61,305 bases of DNA from Obrimoposthia wandeli. Its lineage: Eukaryota. Location: contig CDROCS010002348.1 in assembly GCA_977020255.1 (NCBI GenBank), positions 310,001-371,305 on the forward strand. The letters run 5' to 3'. The notes under the pieces are model-generated. The model was not told the origin of the DNA. It did no database searches and saw only the letters and a list, made by a program, of their open reading frames with translations. The position numbers were made by a program, and so were the translations under genes. Positions 50,797 through 51,032 of this stretch are shown one piece after another. Numbering within the stretch: the stretch's first letter is position 1; each line of letters begins with the position of its first letter.

Positions 50797-51032
50797 CTGA
50801 TGTTCTACAGTAATGACATCAATATTTTCCTCTAATTCGTTTCCTATCGGATATCCGCACTCGACTGGTACGTCTTCATCATCTAGTGATCTGCCTTTAT
50901 AATGGAACAACATATTCATTCCATCTATTTCGAGTTTCTCGGCCAACTTTTTCGAATAGTTTTCATTGTTTGGTATACGTTAAGTTTTTCATGCATAATC
51001 TGTCCGGAATTTAATCTAAGTGAAATTTTCAT
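50797..51032 (-). pseudogene. ubiquitin/SUMO-like (beta-grasp) domain
   Basis: With one frameshift: MKISLRLNSGQIMHEKLNVYQTMKTIRKKLAEKLEIDGMNMLFHYKGRSLDDEDVPVECGY...ENIDVITV. Aligns without gaps to ubiquitin residues 1-60 (G10, T22, G47, L50, D52 kept); no C-terminal GG. Confidence 0.65.

Follow-up and report, generated by a model that had tools for sequence, protein, structure and literature searches.

A decayed copy of a Burro-type polyprotein domain with a predicted ubiquitin fold in Obrimoposthia wandeli

On the minus strand of the 61,305-nucleotide stretch of Obrimoposthia wandeli DNA analyzed here (the window), positions 50,797-51,032 come to resemble ubiquitin once a base that seems to be missing from an A-run is restored. 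This raises the question of whether a ubiquitin-like domain (Ubl) is really encoded there or is produced by the correction itself and, if it is real, what kind of protein it belongs to and what it might do. Based on comparison with other copies and on structure prediction, we conclude that the stretch represents, in decayed form, an integral domain with a predicted ubiquitin fold from a Burro-type polyprotein.

The window copy and its sisters

The reading opens with an ATG at 51,032 (MKISLRLNSG...) and is broken at a T-run of the plus strand (50,948-50,952), the remainder (..LFHYKGRSLDDEDVPVECG..IDVITVEHQ) lying in another frame down to 50,797. Taken alone, the downstream pieces of the window copy give no ubiquitin-family Pfam match. 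Some 20 codons upstream of the Ubl (around 51,090), the window copy and its 99% identical sister share an in-frame stop, so the window copy is dead at this point whatever the status of the frame break. Over 3.9 kb the window copy departs from its closest sister by 52 indels as well as 35 substitutions; such an indel-rich pattern resembles long-read error, and the frame break may be an assembly error. Public contigs from four runs of one sample are short and collapsed over the break region.

That the Ubl is an artefact of frame correction is ruled out by unbroken sister copies. The domain occupies a single frame in the family, as the corrected reading of the initial annotation had supposed: 25 of the 30 best DNA matches read it in one stop-free frame, and the five broken ones are the window copy, three copies with stops and one with a later frame break. 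We also chose copies on an unrelated 5' stretch (38 copies, being 40 matches less two in the window's own contig). The Ubl is covered by 34 of these, and in 25 it is free of stops and frameshifts.

Judged from variation among these 34 copies, the Ubl is under purifying selection. Variants shared by at least two copies are synonymous in 25 cases and non-synonymous in 17 (ratio 0.17), against 17 and 43 for private variants (ratio 0.62; Fisher p 0.002 for shared versus private), where ratios use equal-rate site counts and variant types, not events, are counted. The direction of the shared-versus-private difference is the same in every region tested, and the ratios in other regions are 0.17 for Env, 0.10 for the Bcl-2-like domain, 0.29 for Gag and 0.29 for the acidic spacer. 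As the Ubl ratio is not significantly below that of the spacer (p 0.27), the evidence of selection speaks for the importance of the frame and not for a special role of the Ubl.

The remains of the element around the Ubl are mapped in Table 1. Compared with natural copies, the window copy is without about 1.08 kb, comprising the end of the Bcl-2-like domain and the start of Env, and without about 340 nt at 47,276-47,285, where the RING sits in natural copies. The Ubl and the protease seem closer to each other in the window because of the missing 1.08 kb.

Table 1. Features of the decayed retrotransposon copy in the window
Feature	Position	Strand	Remarks
Primer-binding-site-like sequence	54214..54231	-	starts TGG; 5' end of internal region
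Gag capsid region	52450..53170	-	broken, approximate bounds; Retrotrans_gag E 0.0046 in natural copy
Gag single CCHC zinc knuckle	51901..51942	-	degraded here
Three-helix domain	51033..51200	-	directly before Ubl; conserved with Ubl in all three lineages; contains the upstream stop
Ubl (predicted beta-grasp)	50797..51032	-	frame-broken; polyprotein residues 841-920 in unbroken natural copy
Acidic spacer	50290..50796	-	about 150 residues, after Ubl
Motif RRGPGRPRK, which we take to be AT-hook-like	50262..50288	-	GRPRK also in distant relative P0002
Bcl-2-like domain	49802..50100	-	PF00452 E 0.026 in natural copy, below cut-off
Env remnant (Monjiviricetes-type fusion glycoprotein) and transmembrane segment	48900..49801	-	approximate bounds; E 2.4e-94 in natural copy
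First retropepsin (DTG)	48122..48541	-	
BIR domain	47700..47900	-	broken, approximate bounds
Second retropepsin (DTG)	46886..47276	-	
Reverse transcriptase and RNase H	45227..46300	-	broken; element cut off at 45,227

A foldback-like element occupies window positions 42768-45227, at the truncated end of the retrotransposon copy; it has long inverted arms (96-98%), and related arms lie at 56,700-58,900. Another copy of this retrotransposon, decayed further, lies on the plus strand at 60527-61305 and runs off the contig end. At 24800-27000 the window also holds an array of 22-nt tandem repeats in which the G skew is strong.

The polyprotein of a Burro-type element

The host element is a gypsy LTR retrotransposon, one natural copy of which measures about 24.4 kb with LTRs of about 2.4-2.6 kb. 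A search of the 1.35 Gb genome returned 3,301 DNA candidates, the 40 that were scored all being 94-100% identical, and there are 9,507 protein candidates for the element in the same genome. Low GC, the genome size and the range reported for Burro suggest a planarian host. Domain order was read from a mapped natural copy of 3,385 + 2,103 codons: Gag, zinc knuckle, three-helix domain, Ubl, acidic spacer, AT-hook and Bcl-2-like domain, followed by Env, protease, BIR-RING, protease, reverse transcriptase (RT), RNase H, integrase and phosphatases. In that copy the CCHC knuckle lies at 536, the Ubl at 841, the AT-hook-like motif at 1085, the end of the Bcl-2-like domain at about 1266, a transmembrane segment at about 1869 and the proteases at 2065 and 2613. 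A Met-rich hydrophobic stretch at about 1310, just before Env, is likely to be a signal sequence.

The domain had been described as lying downstream of gag. This is correct as to position, but the Ubl shares its frame with the upstream Gag as well as with the AT-hook, Bcl-2-like domain and Env downstream, and belongs to one polyprotein rather than merely following gag. Open frames of 3,385, 5,220 and 5,132 codons each contain it.

In the part of their paper that deals with Burro, Arkhipova and Yushenova (2019; PMC6431247) record that planarian Burro elements carry a Ubi2/SUMO-like motif immediately ahead of BCL-2, and describe a Burro/GYPSM1 single polyprotein of 4,873-5,140 aa in elements of more than 30 kb with thousands of copies. 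This kind of Ubl is already in print for Burro and is not new. Like Burro/GYPSM1, the present element is a giant gypsy LTR element with long LTRs and a high copy number, and its polyprotein is huge (about 5,000 aa, from the open frames of 5,220 and 5,132 codons), with a CCHC Gag, the Ubl before a BCL-2-like domain (a weak match, E 0.026), Env in frame between Gag and Pol, and then a BIR. The published motif and the present Ubl share a position, and it is on this position that their proposed homology is based. The element differs in its size (about 24 kb, below the published >30 kb), in having one knuckle where two or three are described, and in its two proteases and the two phosphatase domains after the integrase, which are absent from the Burro section of PMC6431247. 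Pfam at E 0.1 gave no match to a MATH/TRAF, ankyrin or dUTPase-like domain in the polyprotein; in the published elements some of these domains were found only by HHpred, and the ORF1 of D. tigrina is described as having no MATH (PMC6431247).

The two dual-specificity phosphatase domains (E 2e-37) follow the integrase at L033:3-3719:+, and a separate RING ORF stands ahead of the 3' LTR (L033:4801-5349:+); neither is named in the Burro section of PMC6431247. The BIR-RING is flanked by the two retropepsins (Table 1), which could cut out this IAP-like part as a protein of its own. For Burro1, the BIR-RING is reported to shield the stem cells of planarians from apoptosis and to help regeneration (Lee et al. 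2026, as cited in PMC13465017). A genome search for the Bcl-2 family gave 15 matches, none resembling the polyprotein's Bcl-2-like domain.

The domain is also found outside this family. A second, older family in the same genome has the same domain order and a Ubl that is 41% identical; it was found by a genome search with P0002, in which about 46 matches, the majority with stops, scored higher than the first family did. P0002 itself, a 997-residue protein from another source, carries the same Ubl beside a related Gag (27% and 26% identical, respectively), and its order of Gag, knuckle, helices, Ubl, GRPRK and Bcl-2-like domain is kept at 24-28% identity. An exhaustive protein search returned two proteins at E <= 0.001, P0002 and a poly-SUMO-like protein, and word-index protein searches gave no relative besides P0002. 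Across lineages only 27-41% identical, the fold, length and surface motifs of the Ubl are kept, and the spacer can no longer be aligned in the deepest comparison.

No functional study of the Burro Ubl turned up in the literature searched, which did not extend to Grohme et al. 2018 or to Lee et al. 2026; Burro is mentioned once in the available text of PMC11410931. The prior record of the domain is one line of HHpred annotation. To this we add a fold model, an analysis of selection, conservation in three lineages and a residue map that points to surfaces worth testing, a modest addition to a known system.

Predicted fold and surface of the domain

At the level of sequence the relationship to ubiquitin is faint. 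The best PDB sequence match has an E of 9e-4, and 26 of the 31 matches at E <= 10 carry ubiquitin-fold names (ubiquitin and its variants, ISG15, SUMO, NIP45 and Rad23). Pfam matches fall below the cut-off, PF00240 being matched weakly by 11 of 33 alignment members and PF11976 by none of the 33 at E <= 1. In the ungapped alignment to ubiquitin residues 1-60 that had been claimed, 10 of 60 residues are identical between a sister copy and host ubiquitin. Local scores of the sister-copy Ubl beat 1,997 of 2,000 shuffles against host ubiquitin, 2,000 of 2,000 against the host SUMO exon and 1,982 of 2,000 against host NEDD8.

A structure model built from the single sequence gave no usable fold (pLDDT 47). 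For an alignment-based model we used 33 natural rows, made up of 14 from this family, 18 stop-free pieces of the second family and one piece of P0002. Mean pLDDT rose to 73.7, with 78-89 in the Ubl core and about 61 in the region of the last strand, and the modeled secondary structure consists of three helices followed by strand-strand-helix-strand-strand-helix-strand. The model superimposes on ubiquitin with a Z of 11.9 and an rmsd of 1.7 A over 77 residues, and Z scores are 11.5 for Hub1, 11.4 for HOIL-1L, 11.1 for SUMO1 and 10.8 for Rad60 SLD2. Among the 500 Foldseek matches listed, 478 have E <= 0.001 and SUMO1 comes first (E 2.9e-6). An atlas search with the Ubl returned ubiquitin, Rad60-SLD and unnamed clusters at 0.89-0.93, with fewer than 170 shared features for the named ones. 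On the strength of this model, predicted membership of the ubiquitin-fold superfamily is clear, and the initial annotation was right about the beta-grasp fold. The model does not discriminate between the narrower SUMO/Rad60 type suggested there and other subtypes: ubiquitin, Hub1, the HOIL-1L UBL, SUMO1 and Rad60 SLD2 all fall within about one Z unit.

The three-helix domain that precedes the Ubl (model residues 11-60) gave weak matches to Vps28 (E 0.05), and an atlas search with it returned nothing above 0.77.

The absence of a terminal di-Gly had suggested an integral, non-conjugated domain, and this proved consistent throughout: no di-Gly follows the Ubl in any of the 34 copies, in the second family or in P0002. 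The Leu8/Ile44/His68/Val70 patch of ubiquitin is not kept. In the three lineages the Leu8 position is N/N/P and the Ile44 position H/K/V, and in a gapped C-terminal alignment His68 corresponds to E/N/Q, Val70 to K/I/K, Gly75 to E/D/Q and Gly76 to L/T/N. Kept in all three lineages, by contrast with the patch, are a basic helix (K-x-hydrophobic-R-x-K/R-L) and an acidic loop (LDD-E/D-D/E ... ECG). The Ubl is 11-18% identical to host ubiquitin, NEDD8 and SUMO (16% for ubiquitin, 13-15% for the SUMO exon).

Several integral UBL domains use an Ile44-type patch. The present Ubl resembles integral UBLs (HOIL-1L, Dsk2, Rad23, Parkin, OASL, BAG1; Z 10.7-11.4) in being an embedded, predicted beta-grasp without di-Gly, but it is without such a patch, is transposon-borne and has a three-helix domain before it. 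In a viral fold library the top matches were the ubiquitin inserts of viral polyproteins (BVDV) and baculoviral v-ubi, which likewise place a ubiquitin fold inside a viral-type polyprotein. Those proteins are close to canonical ubiquitin and work as cleavage signals or modifiers, unlike the Ubl here with its 16% identity to host ubiquitin and no di-Gly.

Possible roles and other ubiquitin-related sequences

The lack of di-Gly, the lost patch, the conserved surfaces of its own and the low identity to host modifiers lead us to read the Ubl as an integral docking domain. We think it probable that it serves as a non-conjugated docking module with its own surface, in an accessory protein between nucleocapsid and Env. 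Cleavage of the polyprotein, both by the proteases of the element and at the signal sequence of Env, would free a cytosolic piece that contains the three-helix domain and the Ubl, perhaps together with the AT-hook and the Bcl-2-like domain. This piece would then bind a partner through the basic helix and acidic loop rather than by the faces on which ubiquitin and SUMO are read. The likelier class of partner seems to be a host protein that controls cell death or ubiquitin, because the neighboring domains are host-derived regulators of that kind. More tentatively, the three-helix domain and Ubl might form a transposon-borne adaptor which, with the Bcl-2-like, BIR-RING and phosphatase domains, makes up a kit that steers ubiquitin/SUMO signaling and planarian stem-cell survival via a surface that no host Ubl uses.

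The domain might instead serve the element itself, as a scaffold that binds the element's Gag/nucleocapsid, Env tail, proteases or RING while particles assemble or the polyprotein is processed. Coronavirus nsp3 offers an analogy, as its Ubl1, followed by an acidic stretch, binds nucleocapsid; in the present polyprotein, too, the Ubl comes directly after the nucleocapsid region and is followed by an acidic spacer, and it has diverged from host modifiers yet is conserved among elements. However, ordinary gypsy elements assemble without a Ubl, and the neighbors of this one are host-type regulators; we regard such a role as rather unlikely.

Less probable again is the mimic or decoy of SUMO or ubiquitin that the initial annotation had envisaged. 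One form of it would be a Rad60/NIP45-type domain that binds the backside of Ubc9 and dampens SUMO-dependent silencing of the element. SUMO1 does head the Foldseek list, the Z score for Rad60 SLD2 is 10.8, the last strand is an acidic E-x-I-D-V in both families of this genome and the sole database match other than P0002 is a poly-SUMO-like protein. Rad60, Esc2 and NIP45 also share the want of conjugation features, and according to the available text of PMC7849368, SLD2 domains that lack these features do bind Ubc9, while Smt3 requires D68 to bind the backside of Ubc9. Against this, the last strand is basic in P0002, PF11976 is unmatched and identity to the host SUMO exon is low. At the Asp position of the F-D-G turn of host SUMO, which we take to be that of Smt3 D68, the three lineages have K, H and E, and no acidic residue on the Ubc9-binding face of SUMO/SLD2 is constant across them. 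For host Ubc9, the genome gave only an exon that lacks the N-terminal helix. With the surface residues used by host readers not kept, the lineage residue map makes canonical mimicry unlikely.

We consider it very improbable that the Ubl forms a DDI1-like unit with a retropepsin and steers it to ubiquitinated or proteasomal targets. As had been pointed out, a BIR and a retropepsin do occur in the same element, and as in DDI1/DDI2 a Ubl and retropepsins (here two) share one primary translation product. The DDI1 analogy is nevertheless rejected, since Ubl and retropepsin are not adjacent: from the Ubl to the first protease the chain runs through about 1,100-1,130 residues, which take in a likely signal sequence, the ectodomain of Env and a transmembrane segment. 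Moreover, the helical domain precedes the Ubl instead of standing between Ubl and protease, and the second protease scores 57 bits with gag-asp_proteas against 33 bits with Asp_protease (PF09668). Least credible is a captured passenger without function, kept as a folded spacer, which would fit selection no stronger than that on the acidic spacer but not the retention of fold, length and surface motifs at identities where that spacer no longer aligns.

The genome contains further ubiquitin-related sequences. A PF11976 search returned host ubiquitin, NEDD8, the SUMO exon and Bel/Pao-type fusions, and 18 of the 20 dispersed matches fetched look like such fusions; none of the 20 was a Burro Ubl. 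In at least three dispersed families (L099-L106, L108, L110-L118; for example L099:3638-5890:+ and L103:3821-5482:+) a near-canonical ubiquitin (PF00240 E 1e-21 to 1e-25) is fused in frame before a Gag-like protein, with DUF1759 (Bel/Pao-type Gag) in three of four proteins scanned. The ubiquitin mostly ends in di-Gly (LRLRGG, LKLRGG, ALKGG) and could be cut off by host deubiquitinases. Capture of the Burro Ubl from these fusions was rejected, identity being 12-22%. The fusions are a more surprising by-product than the Burro Ubl, and the available text of the literature searched gave no published account of them.

Tandem ubiquitin-like ORFs about 270 nt apart that stop right after LR, without di-Gly, were also seen (L081 and L082; C2050, C2592 and others in G000), and divergent E2 (UQ_con) genes without introns form expanded clusters in the host genome (L203-L228).
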